DNA from: a virus
Lineage: Duplodnaviria > Caudoviricetes
IMG/VR virus record: IMGVR_UViG_3300038492_000542
Location: 1-62,849 of that record
Reading direction: 5' to 3' (one strand)
Length of the DNA stretch: 62,849 nt
The notes under the pieces were generated by a model, which was given only the letters and a program-made list of their open reading frames with translations, had not been told where the DNA came from and made no database searches. Positions within the stretch are counted from its first letter, which is position 1. Each line of letters starts with the position of its first letter. The translations under genes and the position numbers were made by a program. Below, one piece after another: positions 2,923-28,347 of the stretch.

Positions 2923-3323
2923 CATACAATGATGCTGTAGCAGCTATTTACCGTCGACTCCAAGCGAATTATAGTCTTGATGATGATCGAATTATCTTTG
3001 ATGGCGATGGCGGTGAAGAGCCTGAAGGAGGTAATTGGGCTCGACTTACGGTTGTATTTGAATCCTCTGATCAGTCGACATTAGGCGTTAAAACTAATAG
3101 AAAATTTGAGCGCTTTGGCAGAATATTGACTCAGGTTTTTACGCCTGCGGAAAGCGGTCGATTGGAAGCGGATTTGCTAGCTCAAGAGGCAAATGATTTA
3201 TTTGAGGGTGAAGAGTTCGAAGGTGTGACTGTTCTATCATCCGTTTGCAGACCTGTTGGCCCAGATGGTAAATGGTATATCATACTGGTTGATTCTGAAT
3301 TCAAATTTGAAACGATAAAATAA
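2919..3323 (+). CDS. Tail terminator protein
   Basis: 134 aa directly before major tail gene; GNWARLTV, G.I..QVFTP pattern. Confidence 0.7.
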   Translation: MTYNDAVAAIYRRLQANYSLDDDRIIFDGDGGEEPEGGNWARLTVVFESSDQSTLGVKTNRKFERFGRILTQVFTPAESGRLEADLLAQEANDLFEGEEFEGVTVLSSVCRPVGPDGKWYIILVDSEFKFETIK

Positions 3324-3335
3324 CTGGAGTGGGCT

Positions 3336-4844
3336 ATGGGCCGCGTCTTAACGAACAATACAGCTTTGTCATGGTCTATCGAAAACACCGAGAATGACCC
3401 CAATGATATTGGTGAGCTACAGCCTATTCCAAAATGGTTTGCCACTCAGCCAAACACCTATGGTGAGATTGGTGCGAATATTACCACTATTGCCAGAAGT
3501 CCAATTTCACAAAACCGCCAGCGCCAAAAAGGCACCATTACCGATTTGGATAGTGGTGCAGAGTTTGAGGTTGATACCACAATTAGCCATGCCACTCAGT
3601 TTATGGAAGGCTTTGTTTTTGCTCGCGCTGTTGGTGCTGAGCAATATGTTGTTTCATCGATAACATCGAATGCCTTTGATGTGGATAGCGGTTCTGTTTT
3701 AGCGGCTGGCACTTTGGTTTACTCGCGATCATTTCCAACTCTGCAAAACAATGGTTTGTTTGTGGTTGGTGCTGGCGCAACTGATACCAGTGTTCCTGTT
3801 AATGCGACATTGACCGATGAGGCGGCAGCGGCCAATACTGAGCTTTCTGTTGCTGGTTTTAGAACGGCTGCCGGTGATTTGTCTGTTGATGTGACTGGTG
3901 GTGTCACCACGATTGCTAGTGTTGCAGGTATTTTTAATAGTGATGGTATAGGTTTAATGCCTGGCGCTGTTATATTTATCGGTGGTGATGCGGCTATTAA
4001 TCGGTTTTCTAATACTGCCAATCTTGGCTATGCTCGTGTTATGTCAGTTGCTGGCGATGGCTCGAGCATTACTGTTGATAAGACTAATACTGTATTTGTC
4101 ACCGAGGCAGGTGCTGCTCAGGAAGTGGATATTTTTGTAGGTGAGTTTATCCGCAATGTACCTGTATCCGATGCTGACTTTTTAGAGCGTAGCTTCCAGT
4201 TTGAGACAACATTCCAAAACCTTGCCAATGATCCTTCGGGTGATGCTTACGAGTACTGCAAAGGCAACTACTGCAATACGGTTGCCATCAATGTCCCCTT
4301 GACCGACAAGTCAACCATGAACTTGGCTTTTGTGGGTTTGGATACTGAGCCACCAACAACAACACGTAAGCAAAACGCAGATTCGGCAGTGATGCCCAAT
4401 AAAAACGGGGCAATGAATACCACTCAGGATATCGCGAGACTGCGCATTACTGAGCTTGATGGTACCGGGCTAACTACTGATTTCAAGAGCCTTACATTAA
4501 CCCTCAATAACAATGTTGCCCCTGAGAAAGTTCTAGCCAACTTAGGTGCTAGATATATGAACTACGGAAACTTTGAGGTGACTGTTGAGGCTGAGCTTGT
4601 TTTCACTGATGCGCGTATTAGCCAAGCGGTTAGAGATAACCAGTCATTAACCATGGATTTCTCGATGCGCAATGATGATGGTTCTATTTACTTTGATATC
4701 CCATCTATCACATTGGGCGGCGGCTCCAAGTCTTTCCCTGTTGGCGAATCTGTTACAATCAGCTCAACCAGTGAAGCCTTCGAAGACCCTACATTAGGCA
4801 CTTCGATTGGTGTCACTATATTTGCTTACACTCCAAAAATTTAA
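3336..4844 (+). CDS. Major tail (tube) protein
   Basis: 502 aa; RSPISQNRQRQKGTITDLD N-terminal motif and TLTLNNN C-terminal tube motif; followed by chaperone and TMP; no sheath gene. Confidence 0.85.
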   Translation: MGRVLTNNTALSWSIENTENDPNDIGELQPIPKWFATQPNTYGEIGANITTIARSPISQNRQRQKGTITDLDSGAEFEVDTTISHATQFMEGFVFARAVGAEQYVVSSITSNAFDVDSGSVLAAGTLVYSRSFPTLQNNGLFVVGAGATDTSVPVNATLTDEAAAANTELSVAGFRTAAGDLSVDVTGGVTTIASVAGIFNSDGIGLMPGAVIFIGGDAAINRFSNTANLGYARVMSVAGDGSSITVDKTNTVFVTEAGAAQEVDIFVGEFIRNVPVSDADFLERSFQFETTFQNLANDPSGDAYEYCKGNYCNTVAINVPLTDKSTMNLAFVGLDTEPPTTTRKQNADSAVMPNKNGAMNTTQDIARLRITELDGTGLTTDFKSLTLTLNNNVAPEKVLANLGARYMNYGNFEVTVEAELVFTDARISQAVRDNQSLTMDFSMRNDDGSIYFDIPSITLGGGSKSFPVGESVTISSTSEAFEDPTLGTSIGVTIFAYTPKI

Positions 4845-17807: not shown

Positions 17808-18078
17808 GCGGCGTTGCCTCAACGTTAAAGTATTCGTGGTCTGACCAATCGGTTTCATCTCTATTATTCCAGCAATAAGTGCCGGTTATCATGTGGTGCC
17901 CAACGCTAGGCTCTTCACCAAGGCTTGTGACCATGTGGTCTACCGCCTCTGATCCATTTTCCATAACGTCCGCCGATATCTCATCGACATCACACTCTGT
18001 CATTACGATGTCACCATTCATGCCAACGGATATCTCAGCGATAAACTCCGCGACATTGTCATAACTGCTAATTCCCAT
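17800..18078 (-). CDS. Hypothetical acidic protein, first gene of leftward operon
   Basis: GGAG SD before ATG 18078. Confidence 0.6.
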   Translation of the reverse strand: MGISSYDNVAEFIAEISVGMNGDIVMTECDVDEISADVMENGSEAVDHMVTSLGEEPSVGHHMITGTYCWNNRDETDWSDHEYFNVEATPHE

Positions 18079-18099
18079 TTTTCTCTCCTGCTGTAAAAA

Positions 18100-18140
18100 G
18101 TGCTTGCATATTATTACTAATATTATTACCATGCAAGCAC
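18100..18140. promoter_or_regulatory. Overlapping symmetric divergent sigma70 promoters
   Basis: + strand TTGCAT-17-TACCAT (18104-18132); - strand TTGCAT-17-TAATAT (18136-18108); flanked by inverted repeat GTGCTTGCAT/ATGCAAGCAC. Confidence 0.7.
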
Positions 18141-18161
18141 TATTTCAATGAGGACTGAAAA

Positions 18162-18347
18162 TTGACTAAAGAAGAAAAGAAAAAGATTACTAATGAGGCC
18201 AAAAAGCTTTTGAAAGCATTAAAGGGGCGCGGTAAAACTCAGCAAGATATTGCTATAGAGATTGGCTGCACTCAAGGCTGGATAGCTGCTGTTAAGAGTG
18301 GCGCTATTCCAAGCGATGATTTTATGAGTGCGCTTAGAAAGATATAA
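18162..18347 (+). CDS. Cro-like HTH regulator
   Basis: GKTQQDIAIEIGCTQGWIAAVKSG..PS; first gene of the rightward operon. Confidence 0.75.
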   Translation: MTKEEKKKITNEAKKLLKALKGRGKTQQDIAIEIGCTQGWIAAVKSGAIPSDDFMSALRKI

Positions 18348-21344: not shown

Positions 21345-21677
21345 GTGATGAAGATGAATAAAAATCAAAGAGGATCAGCGTTCGTTGATATGCTTATTGT
21401 ATTGGCAATACTGGGAGTAATAGCGTCTATTGTATACACGCTGATTATTAATGTTTTCCCTGAAAGTAAATACAGCCCTGATTGGCCAATGTCACAAACC
21501 GGTTTTGTTGAAGGCTATGAGGATGCCAGCACTGAATTTTCTAAAACCATGGTTGTCACTGATTTCGGAACATTCAAGGTTAGAGGGTCAGTTTCTGGCC
21601 TTTACGGCGAGGAGGTTGGCCTGCAGGGCGATAAGGTATGCTTTCCTAAACGCGGTGTTTGCTACAAGATTATTTGA
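21345..21677 (+). CDS. Prepilin-like protein
   Basis: KNQRG|SAFVDMLIVLAILGVIASIV resembles a class III signal peptide. Confidence 0.6.
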   Translation: MMKMNKNQRGSAFVDMLIVLAILGVIASIVYTLIINVFPESKYSPDWPMSQTGFVEGYEDASTEFSKTMVVTDFGTFKVRGSVSGLYGEEVGLQGDKVCFPKRGVCYKII

Positions 21678-21692
21678 CTGGTGGTAAATAAA

Positions 21693-21711
21693 TGGGTGGA
21701 GATTATCCACC
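21693..21711. terminator. Hairpin between convergent genes
   Basis: GGGTGGA-GATTA-TCCACCC. Confidence 0.55.
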
Positions 21712-21717
21712 CTTACA

Positions 21718-22023
21718 TTATTTTGATTCGCTAAGCTTCTCTCTTAGCAAATACCCTTCAAGCTGCCAGATCTTTTGCTTGGCATTTTCCCTTGCGTATT
21801 TTCGTCCAAGCTCTTCATTGAAATTTTCAGGGCTGGCACATGCCGATTCGCCAAGTACCGTAAAACCGTTTTTAAGCGTTAGTAGGCAAGCGGTAAGTGT
21901 GGTATCAGGAAACACATGATACTGCTCTTTATCAATAACCTCCTCTAGACGCTCTACGGTTACGCGTGGCGCGGTTAAGCCTTTTTCCTGAATTTCTTTT
22001 TCAGCTTCTTCAAGATTCATCAA
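21718..22023 (-). CDS. N4 Gp49/Sf6 gp66 family protein (candidate Acb4-type sponge)
   Basis: APRVT...T.C.L.LKNGFTV.GESACASPENF.EELG...A...A..KIW.LEGYLL motif. Confidence 0.8.
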   Translation of the reverse strand: MMNLEEAEKEIQEKGLTAPRVTVERLEEVIDKEQYHVFPDTTLTACLLTLKNGFTVLGESACASPENFNEELGRKYARENAKQKIWQLEGYLLREKLSESK

Positions 22024-25862: not shown

Positions 25863-26705
25863 ATGATGAAGGCAGTCACGGCATACAGACTAAGCGAAGA
25901 TAATAATAAATTCTTTGATGGTATCGGTGATCAAATGAATACTTATCTTGAGCGCAATGAGTTCAAGCCATGTCAAAAGCTTGAGATCTATAGTCACGGA
26001 TTTATTAAAACGCCTAGCAATGAGTTTTGCACATCGGTTATGGGTTCGCATCATTTTATTTATCAGCGTCAAGATAAGATTTTGCCGGCTTCCGTTATTA
26101 ATGATTTTGTTAAAGATAAAATCGAAAGTATTTTTGATCTTGAAGGTAGAAAGGTTGGCAGAAAAGAGCGCAAGGATATCAAAGATGAGTTGATGTTTGA
26201 GTTGCTACCCAAGGCCTTTACTAAAAAAATACAAGTTCCATGTTTTATTAAGGGTGATAAGATTTTTATTGGATGCTCATCGACAAAGCGCGCTGAGGAA
26301 ATCTGTTCTTTAGTTCGAGATTCAATGGGTAATCTTCCAATTTTGCCATTGGAAAGAATATCGCTGGATGAATTGGCTAAAAGCTATGAAGAGGGTGATA
26401 TAATACCTCTAGATAAAATTAAACTTGTTCAAGCAAAAGGCGGTGCCACATCTAGCCATAAGCATATACCTGTTTTTAGTGATGAGGTTAGAACTGCTTT
26501 TGATGCCGGCATGAGCGTTGAAGAAATAGCCATAGAATACAAGGAAAACTTCAGCGCGACATACACAACATCTCGACAGCTAAAAAGCCTTAAATTAAGC
26601 GATGAAATTAAATTTGAGGCACAGGATGGTTGTGAAACTGAAGCCGATCTTTGGCAGGCAACGCAAATAATTTTATCCGATGTTATTGGTGAGTTTTATG
26701 GATAA
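25863..26705 (+). CDS. rdgC: Recombination-associated protein RdgC
   Basis: F.PC...E..S.GF, KILPASVI, EGRKVGRKERKDIKDE...ELLPKAF, S.KRAEE....R. Confidence 0.88.
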   Translation: MMKAVTAYRLSEDNNKFFDGIGDQMNTYLERNEFKPCQKLEIYSHGFIKTPSNEFCTSVMGSHHFIYQRQDKILPASVINDFVKDKIESIFDLEGRKVGRKERKDIKDELMFELLPKAFTKKIQVPCFIKGDKIFIGCSSTKRAEEICSLVRDSMGNLPILPLERISLDELAKSYEEGDIIPLDKIKLVQAKGGATSSHKHIPVFSDEVRTAFDAGMSVEEIAIEYKENFSATYTTSRQLKSLKLSDEIKFEAQDGCETEADLWQATQIILSDVIGEFYG

Positions 26706-26997
26706 AATAGATTGGAAGTTTGTAAGCAAGACTGAGGGTTATATTTCGCTTAAAAAAAGCTATATTGAAAGATTGAATTATCTTAATTGCTCATATTCAA
26801 GAAGAAAAAATATTAAAATTATAAAGCAGGATCATTATTCTGATTTCAGAGAGTGCATAGGTAGGGTTATGAAATTTTCTAACCTATGGGGTATTGATTT
26901 CCATATTTTATTGAATCACTTTGAAAAAAATAGAAAAACTTGCTATGTTTATTTTTACAGTAGTTGGAATTTGATTAACTATAAACCAAGTCTGTAA
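26698..26997 (+). CDS. Hypothetical protein
   Basis: AT-rich ORF overlapping the rdgC stop. Confidence 0.5.
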   Translation: MDKIDWKFVSKTEGYISLKKSYIERLNYLNCSYSRRKNIKIIKQDHYSDFRECIGRVMKFSNLWGIDFHILLNHFEKNRKTCYVYFYSSWNLINYKPSL

Positions 26998-27281
26998 GAT
27001 GGTCGCTCGAAGAGAAAAAGCCGAACTGATTACGATGTCGAGATCATAAAGGTAAGGTAAGTATCTGATTAATGCGGGTGATAGGGTAAACTCGAATAAT
27101 ACCTAGTGACTGCATTTTGTGAAGACTGCATAAATAGATTCTCACGCTAAGCCTTTGCAGCTAACGTGACAACAGTTCGGCCATCAGGGCTGTGAGGATC
27201 AACTAAAGTTTTTATTTGTAATTCTCTTTGAAGGTGATTGCAAATAAGAATTTGCAAACCCCCTCGGCATAAAGGAGGGGG

Positions 27282-27390
27282 CACTAGAAACAGCTCTTGG
27301 TGTGCTTGATGGGCGATTCAAGCGGCATAATTCGCGAAATGTCAGGTTTTAGCCCGAGGGTTCGACTCCCTACAAGAGCTGTTTCTAGTG
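27282..27390 (+). ncRNA. tRNA-like cloverleaf inside an 18-bp perfect terminal stem
   Basis: CACTAGAAACAGCTCTTG/CAAGAGCTGTTTCTAGTG; D-like arm GCTTGA/TCAAGC; T-arm AGGG-TTCGACT-CCCT. Confidence 0.6.
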
Positions 27391-27735
27391 TTCTGAATGT
27401 AAAGTAGACTAGGTATGGTTGCCATCTACGATTTAGTTCACTGCCAGATAAGGCTAAAATCCGTCACGGTAAACGACGTTAAAATGCGAACCCTTCTTGC
27501 CAGTATTATGTGGTCCATAAATCTGGGTGCTGATGACACTAACATCATGACAAGCTGGGAAAGTACCAGCCCTATACCGTTGATGGTTGAGGTTGTGTTG
27601 CGCACAACGAATACGGGTAAAAGGCTGACAGTCGGGAAAGTACCGGCAACTTACGGTCTGGTCGGCGCCTATATTATGACTCCCCCTAATCTTCGCTGGG
27701 ATTGGGGTTCTGGTAACGGGTAATGAGAATTGATT

Positions 27736-27847
27736 GGTTGCTGAGACTGATTTTTCGTGACTTCGTTATTAGTGAATCCTCAGCGAGATTCGGAAAGCGA
27801 AAATCATGCGGATTGGTTGGAGGTGAAACCCCTTGCTCAGACCGCCA
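27736..27847 (+). ncRNA. tRNA-like element ending in GCCA with large insertion
   Basis: GGT(TG)CTGAG/CTCAGACC-G-CCA; T-like arm GAGG-TGAAACC-CCTT; internal TGATTTT(T)CG/CGAAAATCA stem. Confidence 0.4.
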
Positions 27848-27853
27848 ATTTAT

Positions 27854-27942
27854 GACTTGTAATTGTGAGGTGTGCAATAGCTTTGTGTGGCGGACTAGGG
27901 CCCTCAAAAGCTTGGCAGTTCGATTCTGTCTGCAGGTCACCA
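27854..27942 (+). ncRNA. Non-canonical tRNA-like RNA ending in ACCA
   Basis: 8-bp acceptor GACTTGTA/TGCAGGTC, T-arm GGCAG-TTCGATT-CTGTC, D-like arm, extended arm in place of the anticodon loop. Confidence 0.6.
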
Positions 27943-28347
27943 TTTAGTTTGTTTTGATCTGTGCGTAATCCATAGCATTAGCCGAAAGGTGCGTGGCCGC
28001 TGATAAGCTGAATAAACAGCAACTGCATTGCGCTATGGTAGTGGCTCTCAAGTAACAATAGGTGAACGAAGATGTGCGCACAGTTCAAAGCAAATTAAAC
28101 AATTTTCCATCACTGGAAAGGTGGCATCTATGCCTAAATAGACGGGTTTGCAATCCTAGGGTGTTTTTATCATTTGTACATCAATGCAACGCGATCAGGC
28201 AGGACTGGCGTTACAAGACTGTCTTTGCAAGCAGCGTGCTCTCCTTTGGTTGTTGCTGTGATTGCAGCGAGTAATGCGCGATAAGCATATCGTTAGTAGG
28301 AAACGGGATGGCCCCGCCTTAAGGGGCACACCAAAAGGAAAATCGAG

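Follow-up and report, generated by a model that had tools for sequence, protein, structure and literature searches.

Location and architecture of the element

We analysed the whole of IMG/VR record IMGVR_UViG_3300038492_000542, a window of 62,849 nt with a completeness estimate of 96%, which represents an uncultivated tailed phage with lambdoid-type modules. The subject of this work is a folded element of about 130 bases within it, in which a GC-rich hairpin directly adjoins a perfect 18-bp duplex whose two 18-nt arms enclose 73 nt able to form a tRNA-like cloverleaf. The element lies in a 417-nt gap between two open reading frames (ORFs) of the same strand, a 105-aa ORF ending at 26997 and a 102-aa ORF starting at 27415. 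The genes on its 5' side encode an Ant/KilAC antirepressor, an O-like initiator, a P-like loader, a PAPS-reductase-family protein and RdgC (25863-26705, on the same strand as the ORFs next to the element); NinB and a VRR-NUC nuclease are encoded on its 3' side. The stretch from 26998 to 28347 (1.35 kb) is unusually poor in convincing genes, because the 102-aa ORF has a weak coding score and no homologue but itself among 5.8 billion proteins, and the next two ORFs (27723-27947 and 28062-28274) were scored as non-coding. The parts of the element are as follows.

27259-27281, plus strand: GC-rich hairpin CCCCCTC/GGCATAAAG/GAGGGGG, 7 bp with a 9-nt loop; present in both the minimum free energy (MFE) and the centroid structure, mean pair probability 0.98

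27282-27299, no strand assigned: 5' arm of the perfect 18-bp duplex, CACTAGAAACAGCTCTTG; 18 of 18 pairs Watson-Crick, pair probabilities 0.94-1.00

27300-27303, plus strand: GTGT linker from the long stem to the first inner hairpin; the Rfam alignment has a T27301-A27372 pair and no partner for G27300

27304-27323, plus strand: D-like hairpin GCTTGA/TGGGCGAT/TCAAGC, 6 bp, 8-nt loop with GG; pair probabilities 0.97-0.99; aligned to the 6-bp D arm of selenocysteine tRNA (tRNA-Sec)

27324-27343, plus strand: weak anticodon-like hairpin GGCAT/AATTCGCGAA/ATGTC; pair probability about 0.10, the MFE structure pairing otherwise here

27345-27354, plus strand: variable-arm-like hairpin GGT/TTTA/GCC, 3 bp; pair probabilities 0.56-0.62

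27357-27371, plus strand: T-arm-like hairpin AGGG/TTCGACT/CCCT; pair probabilities 0.52-0.58; local match to the T arms of tmRNA and mascRNA

27373-27390, no strand assigned: 3' arm of the perfect 18-bp duplex, exact reverse complement of the 5' arm

A perfect 18-bp duplex and an adjoining hairpin

The exact 18-nt inverted repeat formed by 27282-27299 and 27373-27390, reported in a preliminary description of this DNA, was confirmed. It is the longest perfect repeat among the 23 inverted pairs lying within 300 nt of each other in the whole window, the next perfect ones being 13 and 12 nt long, and by our own arithmetic (62,849 x 300 x 4^-18) such a repeat is expected by chance about 3e-4 times per window. 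The element is present in one copy in the genome. Its predicted fold has a free energy of -54.5 kcal/mol (z score -5.1), as good as none of 200 shuffled sequences, and reaches -63.5 kcal/mol (z -5.6) when the upstream flank is added. The structure is real and selected, and the earlier view of a strongly folded element holds. Sliding-window folds of the surrounding gap gave z <= -3 at three places only (27200-27319, the element itself and 27680-27799); with no Rfam match in addition, a large structured RNA filling the 1.35-kb gap was rejected.

The GC hairpin is a new observation beyond the preliminary description, which had instead let the long stem continue by G-U pairing. Beyond the 18 bp, the predicted structure has either four more pairs, three of them G-U, or the abutting 7-bp hairpin, depending on the flank. 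Both use the same run of G: the GGGG/UUCU extension forms when the upstream flank is removed, but when the sequence is extended by 20 bases the G run is taken up by CCCCCTC, and the hairpin wins. The 18 Watson-Crick pairs, intercistronic between ORFs of the same strand, supply the roughly two helical turns of nearly unbroken duplex required of an RNase III processing site, and a duplex of about 20 bp of the type that double-strand RNases cut is present, as had been proposed from the sequence.

A syntenic relative keeps the hairpin and the long stem

NinB as a single protein query returned one locus, and a NinB alignment returned 58 viral and 15 genomic loci. Only one of 73 loci (L004 and L010-L081) also carries rdgC. 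This locus, L010, shares with the window RdgC at 57%, NinB at 73%, orf97 at 88% and VRR-NUC at 53%, and a comparison of its record (G002) with the window gives 23 aligned blocks of 64-88% nucleotide identity, mostly 64-73%. L010 has an element in the equivalent position, downstream of rdgC and a small ORF. It begins with a GC hairpin of 6 bp (CCCTCG/CGAGGG), followed 2 nt later by a 19-nt inverted repeat (3088-3106 and 3195-3213) that is 95% complementary and has 88 nt between its arms; the L010 fold reaches -55.5 to -59.6 kcal/mol (z -5.3 to -5.9).

The two elements share structure rather than letters. When the long stems are set in register from their outer ends, eight of 18 pairs are identical, nine are changed on both sides and still paired, and one is a T.T mismatch in L010; the outermost four base pairs, CACT/AGTG, are common to both. 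In block-by-block alignment the GC hairpin is the sole part with significant sequence similarity to L010 (z 4.5, reached by 0 of 300 shuffles), and the arms, the interior and the flanks have none. A covariance model (R1) built from the window element alone and run with filters off matched L010:3064-3215 at 23.6 bits (E 3.2e-4), the runner-up in 10.6 kb scoring 8.0 bits. The alignment covers the hairpin, placed on L010:3064-3087, and the stem, and skips the interiors. The L010 interior still forms three hairpins and so retains the four-way shape, and it contains no T loop and no match to the tRNA clan.

The preliminary description had named a lack of conservation of the internal arms as grounds for refuting its reading, and this is what L010, the sole positional homologue found (n = 1), shows: it keeps the hairpin and a 19-bp stem around an unalignable interior without a T loop. 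The conserved part is the GC hairpin together with the 18-19-bp stem, hereafter the clamp, at a fixed place after rdgC, and not the tRNA-like arms. Since L010 keeps the stem and lacks the tRNA-like interior, function seems to lie in the stem and not in mimicry of a tRNA.

The gene that follows the clamp differs between the two phages. In L010 it is an HNH endonuclease ORF (L010:3228-3737; phrog_99, E 2e-64) starting 15 nt past the clamp, and in the window the slot is taken by the 102-aa ORFan. The slot appears to be a variable gene cassette.

The interior resembles a tRNA but is not a tRNA gene

The cloverleaf of the 73-nt interior is calculated at -47.3 kcal/mol against -47.6 kcal/mol for the MFE structure; the added U-A pair (T27301-A27372) costs energy, giving -44.4 instead of -47.3 kcal/mol. 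The arms differ in how firmly they are predicted. The D-like arm is robust, and the short variable arm of 3 bp is present with a pair probability of about 0.6, both as first described. The anticodon-like arm, with its 10-nt loop, exists in the sequence, but at a pair probability of about 0.10 it gives way to other pairs in the MFE structure, and its loop (AATTCGCGAA) departs from the 7-nt loop on a 5-bp stem of a tRNA. The T arm, with the loop previously called canonical, is likewise present, directly next to the 3' arm with A27372 alone between them, but its stem is limited to 4 bp, a fifth pair being a G.A mismatch. The T arm adjoining the 3' arm fits TTCRANY, and the D-like loop (TGGGCGAT) carries GG as in tRNAs. 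The closing stem departs from an acceptor stem, since it runs on for 11 further perfect pairs, and there is no trace of CCA at either possible end (TGTT follows the inner 7 bp, TTCT the full 18 bp).

The anticodon-like loop (27329-27338) also contains a self-complementary octamer, TTCGCGAA, which in principle could serve for loop-loop pairing of two copies or as a protein site in DNA.

With default settings, ARAGORN found no tRNA gene in the 62,849 nt, and no Rfam family reached its gathering score in the element region. The best permissive Rfam match was to tRNA-Sec (RF01852) over the full model length. It scored 22.4 bits, where the gathering score is 47, with E values of 0.21 for a search of 2.1 kb and 0.012 for one of 126 nt across 4,227 families. 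Most of the score is due to the closing stem, the consensus T arm and the 6-bp D arm; the low score, and the loop AAUUCGCGAA without UCA, speak against a selenocysteine tRNA. Families beyond the tRNA clan gave no match to the element at E up to 10. ARAGORN called the element at -ps85 or -ps80 only, and the -ps85 call is unspecific because that setting yields six calls in the window and four in the L010 relative. The element is thus not a tRNA gene and not a normal decoding tRNA, in agreement with the earlier exclusion of a decoding role from the 10-nt loop and the missing CCA.

A scan for a stem followed by TTCRANY returned three hairpins in the window, of which two are on the plus strand, at 27356 and 27914, both in the 1.35-kb gene-poor stretch. 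The T loop plus 3' arm of the element, searched in metagenome contigs, gave one match, a canonical 91-nt tRNA(UAU) at L009:3147-3237 in a 30-tRNA array. This tRNA and the element are identical over GCTCTTGG (the acceptor strand and next base, 8 nt) and over 23 nt of T arm and 3' strand. Their interiors do not align, and the contig is not from a related genome. By a rough estimate, exact sharing by coincidence is possible among the very many tRNAs of the collection; we take the matching segments as plausible tRNA sequences and not as a proven parent. The clustering of T-arm hairpins, the ACCA end of the second tRNA-like element described below and the match of stem and T arm to a real tRNA make a tRNA ancestry of the interior likely from its sequence. 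The tRNA likeness noted earlier is borne out to this extent, by the full-length tRNA-Sec match, the consensus T arm and the shared stem and T arm.

The array in question, L009:576-4067 on a 7.4-kb metagenome contig, comprises 30 tRNA genes, the 91-nt tRNA with anticodon UAU having a 23-nt unpaired variable region. An unusual tRNA-like gene of 90 nt is also found at L014:6442-6531 in a phage that shares NinB at 56%. It is called by default ARAGORN; its anticodon loop is 6 nt long (AUUCGU), its variable arm has 9 bp, and CCA is missing. UUCG occurs in this loop as it does in a loop of the window element.

Two candidate explanations of the tRNA likeness were tried and rejected. A split or intron-bearing tRNA spanning the downstream ORF would need a better 5' acceptor strand, and none was found upstream. 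The attP core of a tRNA-integrating phage was dismissed, as the window contains no integrase (PF00589 and PF00239, 0 matches each; the controls were positive for 14 of 14 and 12 of 14 genomes). The window phage thus has an antirepressor and RecET without a tyrosine or serine recombinase at 96% estimated completeness.

A second tRNA-like element downstream

About 460 nt downstream of the clamp element lies a weaker tRNA-like element, E2.

27854-27942, plus strand: E2; 8-bp closing stem with two G-U pairs, central hairpin, T arm GGCAG/TTCGATT/CTGTC, then ACCA

E2 was called by ARAGORN at -ps90 only and matched Rfam tRNA-Sec at 13.7 bits (E 2.3), and its fold is no better than that of shuffled sequences (z -0.6). 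L010 has a counterpart at 3755-3838 with a T arm ATAGG-TTCGATT-CCTAT and a TCCA end, and the distance from the clamp element is about 460-540 nt across both phages. Both copies have a closing stem with G-U pairs and a central hairpin with the common sequence TTTGTG...CAAA, lack a proper D arm, and lie below detector thresholds (ARAGORN at -ps90 or -ps85 only). E2 may be a conserved minihelix-type RNA of acceptor and T arm.

These data bear on two explanations centred on the tRNA. The first is a decayed tRNA gene without present function, whose leader and trailer were turned into a perfect palindrome by template-switch correction of a quasi-palindrome. Such a history would account for the failure in tRNA detection, for the 10-nt loop, the G.A mismatch topping the T stem and the missing CCA, for a second degenerate tRNA-like element 460 nt away, and for the canonical 91-nt tRNA that shares acceptor and T arm exactly and has a 7-nt anticodon loop. 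Decay does not explain, however, why the stem lengthened to 18 perfect pairs, nor why a 19-bp stem and a hairpin were kept in the equivalent position in a relative whose non-coding sequence is otherwise unalignable; moreover, the matching tRNA belongs to an unrelated 30-tRNA array with an unalignable interior, and chance sharing is conceivable by rough estimate. We regard decay as quite unlikely.

The second is the idea put forward in the preliminary description, that the tRNA-shaped RNA is itself the product, a dedicated mimic or decoy that binds or distracts tRNA-handling enzymes or tRNA-cleaving defence nucleases. In its favour, no more than 0.3 kcal/mol separates the cloverleaf from the MFE structure, the GG of the D loop and the consensus T loop stand in the right order and spacing, and two tRNA-like elements occur in one stretch without convincing ORFs. 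Yet the tRNA-like arms are not kept in the sole positional homologue, the anticodon-like arm is the weakest part of the fold, the tRNA-Sec score is under half of the Rfam gathering score, and a full-text literature search found no paper describing such an element. We consider a dedicated mimic improbable, and rank it behind decay. What stands of that proposal is a real, folded, non-decoding tRNA-like element with a duplex of the kind that double-strand RNases cut; what lacks support is the retention of its arms, which L010 does not keep, and the link to anticodon nucleases and tRNA enzymes.

Occurrence in other genomes and genome setting

Among the 50,697 deposited phage records, neither megablast nor blastn found a near or distant DNA match to the element or its surroundings. 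A search of sequencing runs listed two runs containing the stretch, both possibly of the source sample, and no RNA run. As single protein queries, the two small flanking ORFs and RdgC found nothing; no rdgC was present in 10 whole relative records, and three further RdgC relatives (P0034-P0036) are known from Logan and ENA assemblies only. No clamp was found in loci other than L010, and these loci are also without rdgC. R1 run with default filters over 765 kb matched the window alone and missed the known L010 copy, so that this run is uninformative.

Pattern searches gave a similar picture. The stem-arm pattern had no match in 185,579 species genomes (genome_contigs), and the pattern of D arm and T loop none in viral contigs; two loops with free stems matched three stretches, of which 0 of 3 show the hairpins, and these were taken as chance. 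The pattern of GC hairpin plus stem termini matched two stretches of viral contigs, namely L010's own contig and a GC-rich coding stretch in L082, which was rejected as a relative and taken for chance.

Inverted repeats with arms of at least 12 nt were scanned in nine genomes of the NinB group, and arms of 18-19 nt occurred in three of them (the window, G002 and G001). In G001, a perfect 19-bp stem at 21673-21809 (L098:1673-1809) encloses 99 nt with four inner hairpins and sits between the genes for the head maturation protease and the major head protein. Its robust helices comprise 41 Watson-Crick and 5 G-U pairs on the coding strand, and 34 and 1 on the other strand, a pattern expected of RNA that folds within an operon transcript. 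The G001 stem shows that operons of this phage group contain intercistronic RNA structures with such a clamp.

Elsewhere in the window, the RecE and RecT genes are on the opposite strand, and holin, large terminase, portal and head genes follow further along. Where the leftward recET block meets the rightward genes there is a 44-nt imperfect palindrome (18076-18164; its arms are 73% complementary and 1 nt apart), which may be a divergent control region. The closest matches of RdgC among deposited phages include the Vibrio phages VHML, VP585 and MAR (about 30% identity).

A proposed duplex clamp in an early transcript, and its alternatives

The reading that we favour, at a probability of about 0.36, sees the element as a conserved clamp of double helix within the early transcript, which probably serves RNase III-type processing or stability and here encloses a tRNA-derived non-decoding cloverleaf. 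The element would be a structured module embedded in cis in the rightward early transcript (replication, recombination and nin-type genes), with the 7-bp GC hairpin followed by the 18-bp duplex that clamps the 73-nt interior, and the clamp would be the part under selection. It would most likely act as a site for double-strand-specific, RNase III-type processing or for stability, separating the rdgC-side message from the downstream variable gene cassette and leaving stem-capped ends; the clamped cloverleaf might be released, or protected, as a small tRNA-shaped RNA. Transcription of the plus strand, cleavage by RNase III and any role of a released RNA are steps that we infer. Signals around the element are consistent with such a placement. 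A scan found no sigma-70-like promoter adjoining the element on the plus strand and nothing convincing on either strand, and no terminator-like site between 26600 and 28100 on either strand. On the plus strand the GC hairpin is followed by CACUAG and the long stem by UUCUGAAU, neither of which makes an intrinsic terminator. The lack of a plus-strand promoter or terminator beside the element is in keeping with its being part of a longer transcript.

The best promoter-like site in the gap, on the minus strand at 27096-27131 (TTCACA, 16 nt, TATTAT; 10 of 12 positions), points away from the element; beside its first hexamer the 8-nt direct repeat GACTGCAT occurs twice, 16 nt apart.

Several observations weigh against the clamp in a rightward transcript. 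Its conservation comes from a single relative, L010; R1 with filters off gave no match below E 0.1 in seven other NinB-sharing loci (63 kb), although the same loci are without rdgC. The robust helices of the window consist of 31 Watson-Crick pairs out of 31 on either strand, with zero G-U, and those of L010 have 33 Watson-Crick and 0 G-U pairs on the plus strand against 47 and 2 on the minus strand. A lack of G-U pairs is unusual for a purely RNA-level constraint, and fits an element that acts in DNA or is read from both strands at least as well. The minus strand of the L010 element also gives the more stable fold (-62.8 kcal/mol with z -8.6, the plus strand having -59.6 kcal/mol with z -5.9), using G-U pairs that are impossible on the plus strand. 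Finally, when the minus strand is read, short U runs come after the GC hairpin (TTTGCAAATTCTTATTT for the window, ATTTCGGTTT for L010), and a scan flagged the L010 hairpin as terminator-like, together with a second minus-strand hairpin inside the element.

The U runs and the terminator-like flag suggest a leftward small RNA, that is, a minus-strand gene in which the long stem provides the structure and the GC hairpin the intrinsic terminator. It could be a cis-antisense regulator of the downstream gene start, that of the HNH endonuclease in L010 and of the ORFan in the window, similar to OOP of lambda, and the plus-strand tRNA likeness would then be incidental. This alternative would explain the better minus-strand fold of L010 with its G-U pairs, the stems made of Watson-Crick pairs only, which are expected if sense and antisense RNAs must both fold, and the start of an ORF 15-25 nt past the stem in both phages. 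Against it, the scan found no sigma-70-like minus-strand promoter to the right of the element in either phage, the window folds better on the plus strand (-63.5 against -59.2 kcal/mol on the minus strand), the window hairpin has just three U directly after its stem and was not flagged, and the T-arm consensus and the CCA-ended E2 are both on the plus strand. We hold a leftward RNA to be unlikely, though the most credible of the alternatives.

The same lack of G-T pairs, zero among 31 in the window and 33 on the L010 plus strand, is also what a DNA-level element would give. In this case a folded single strand or cruciform would serve as a recombination, priming or protein-binding site, or be a MITE-like insertion (miniature inverted-repeat transposable element), with the RNA fold as a by-product. 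Both stems have kept perfect or nearly perfect pairing despite diverged sequences, the outer CACT/AGTG is the same in both phages, an HNH endonuclease gene adjoins the L010 copy, and both strands fold about equally well. However, the flanks show no target-site duplication (GGGGG|...|TTCTG), each genome has one copy, and the arm pattern was absent from the species genomes and, in viral contigs beyond L010, gave only the chance match in L082; a MITE or transposon remnant was rejected on these grounds. The window and L010 copies occupy the same genomic place and are therefore orthologous, not independently inserted. In addition, the window has no integrase or resolvase, and the consensus T arm of the interior is meaningful as RNA only. 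We find a DNA-level role rather unlikely, ranking it behind the leftward RNA and ahead of decay.

The favoured clamp in the early transcript could be extended by one step. The GC hairpin and the 18-19-bp clamp might be a conserved 'expression cage' of this lineage that cuts different small structured RNAs from the early transcript: here a non-decoding tRNA-shaped RNA acting on the host tRNA machinery or on tRNA-cleaving defence nucleases, and in the relative another RNA with another target. We offer this as a long shot, with less credence than any of the alternatives above.

Comparison with known systems

A parallel to the proposed clamp is offered by the intercistronic RNase III processing hairpins of phage early transcripts, such as the R sites of T7 and the N-leader and sib sites of lambda. 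The element resembles them in having a duplex of about 20 bp between operon genes, no adjacent terminator on the coding strand, and a counterpart of different sequence at the equivalent position of a related phage. The T7 and lambda sites are single irregular hairpins of 50-60 nt, whereas the duplex described here clamps a branched interior of 73-88 nt and is preceded by a separate GC hairpin. Lambda OOP, a cis-antisense regulator, would be the parallel for the leftward alternative.

Among tRNAs, the L009 tRNA(UAU) is like the element in the order of its cloverleaf arms, in addition to the exact identity of GCTCTTGG and of the 23 nt of T arm and 3' strand. Its anticodon loop is 7 nt long, its D and T stems have 4 and 5 bp, and it ends in ACCA; it scores 38.4 bits with RF00005 and is called by default ARAGORN. 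In contrast, the element, whose loop is 10 nt long and whose D stem has 6 bp, lacks CCA, continues its stem by 11 further pairs and fails both detectors. With selenocysteine tRNA (RF01852) it has in common the 6-bp D stem and an extended acceptor plus T helix, but its 22.4 bits against 47, the lack of a UCA anticodon, the 8-nt D loop and the 3-bp variable arm place it outside that family.

Two further classes of small RNA invite comparison. A fully paired 5' leader, as the element has, disfavours RNase P. The element thereby differs from the c4 RNA of phages P1 and P7, and it does so too in that its matches fall within the tRNA clan only. A review lists, in its passage on RNase P substrates, 'several phage-induced regulatory RNAs', citing Hartmann et al. 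1995 on c4 (PMC4919922). c4 and the element are alike as small structured phage RNAs that lie within an operon and are cut out by RNA-processing enzymes of the host, a proposed step in the case of the element. The YrlA-type Y RNAs share with the element a long stem formed from both ends and hairpins like a T arm and a D arm. Their arm order is permuted, with the T arm first and the RNA ends in the anticodon stem, unlike the element, whose arms are in tRNA order. The YrlA model (RF02553) found no match in the element region at E up to 10, and gave weak matches across neighbouring tRNAs in L009.

As it stands, the element is an orphan of moderate value, with two syntenic copies and a tRNA-like part that is not conserved; a full-text literature search found no description of a tRNA-derived cloverleaf in a conserved 18-bp clamp. 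Both the carriage of tRNAs and the processing of long transcripts at double-stranded sites are familiar in phages. If the clamp is a processing cassette with an exchangeable interior, it would give phages a simple route to small stable RNAs from their operon transcripts.

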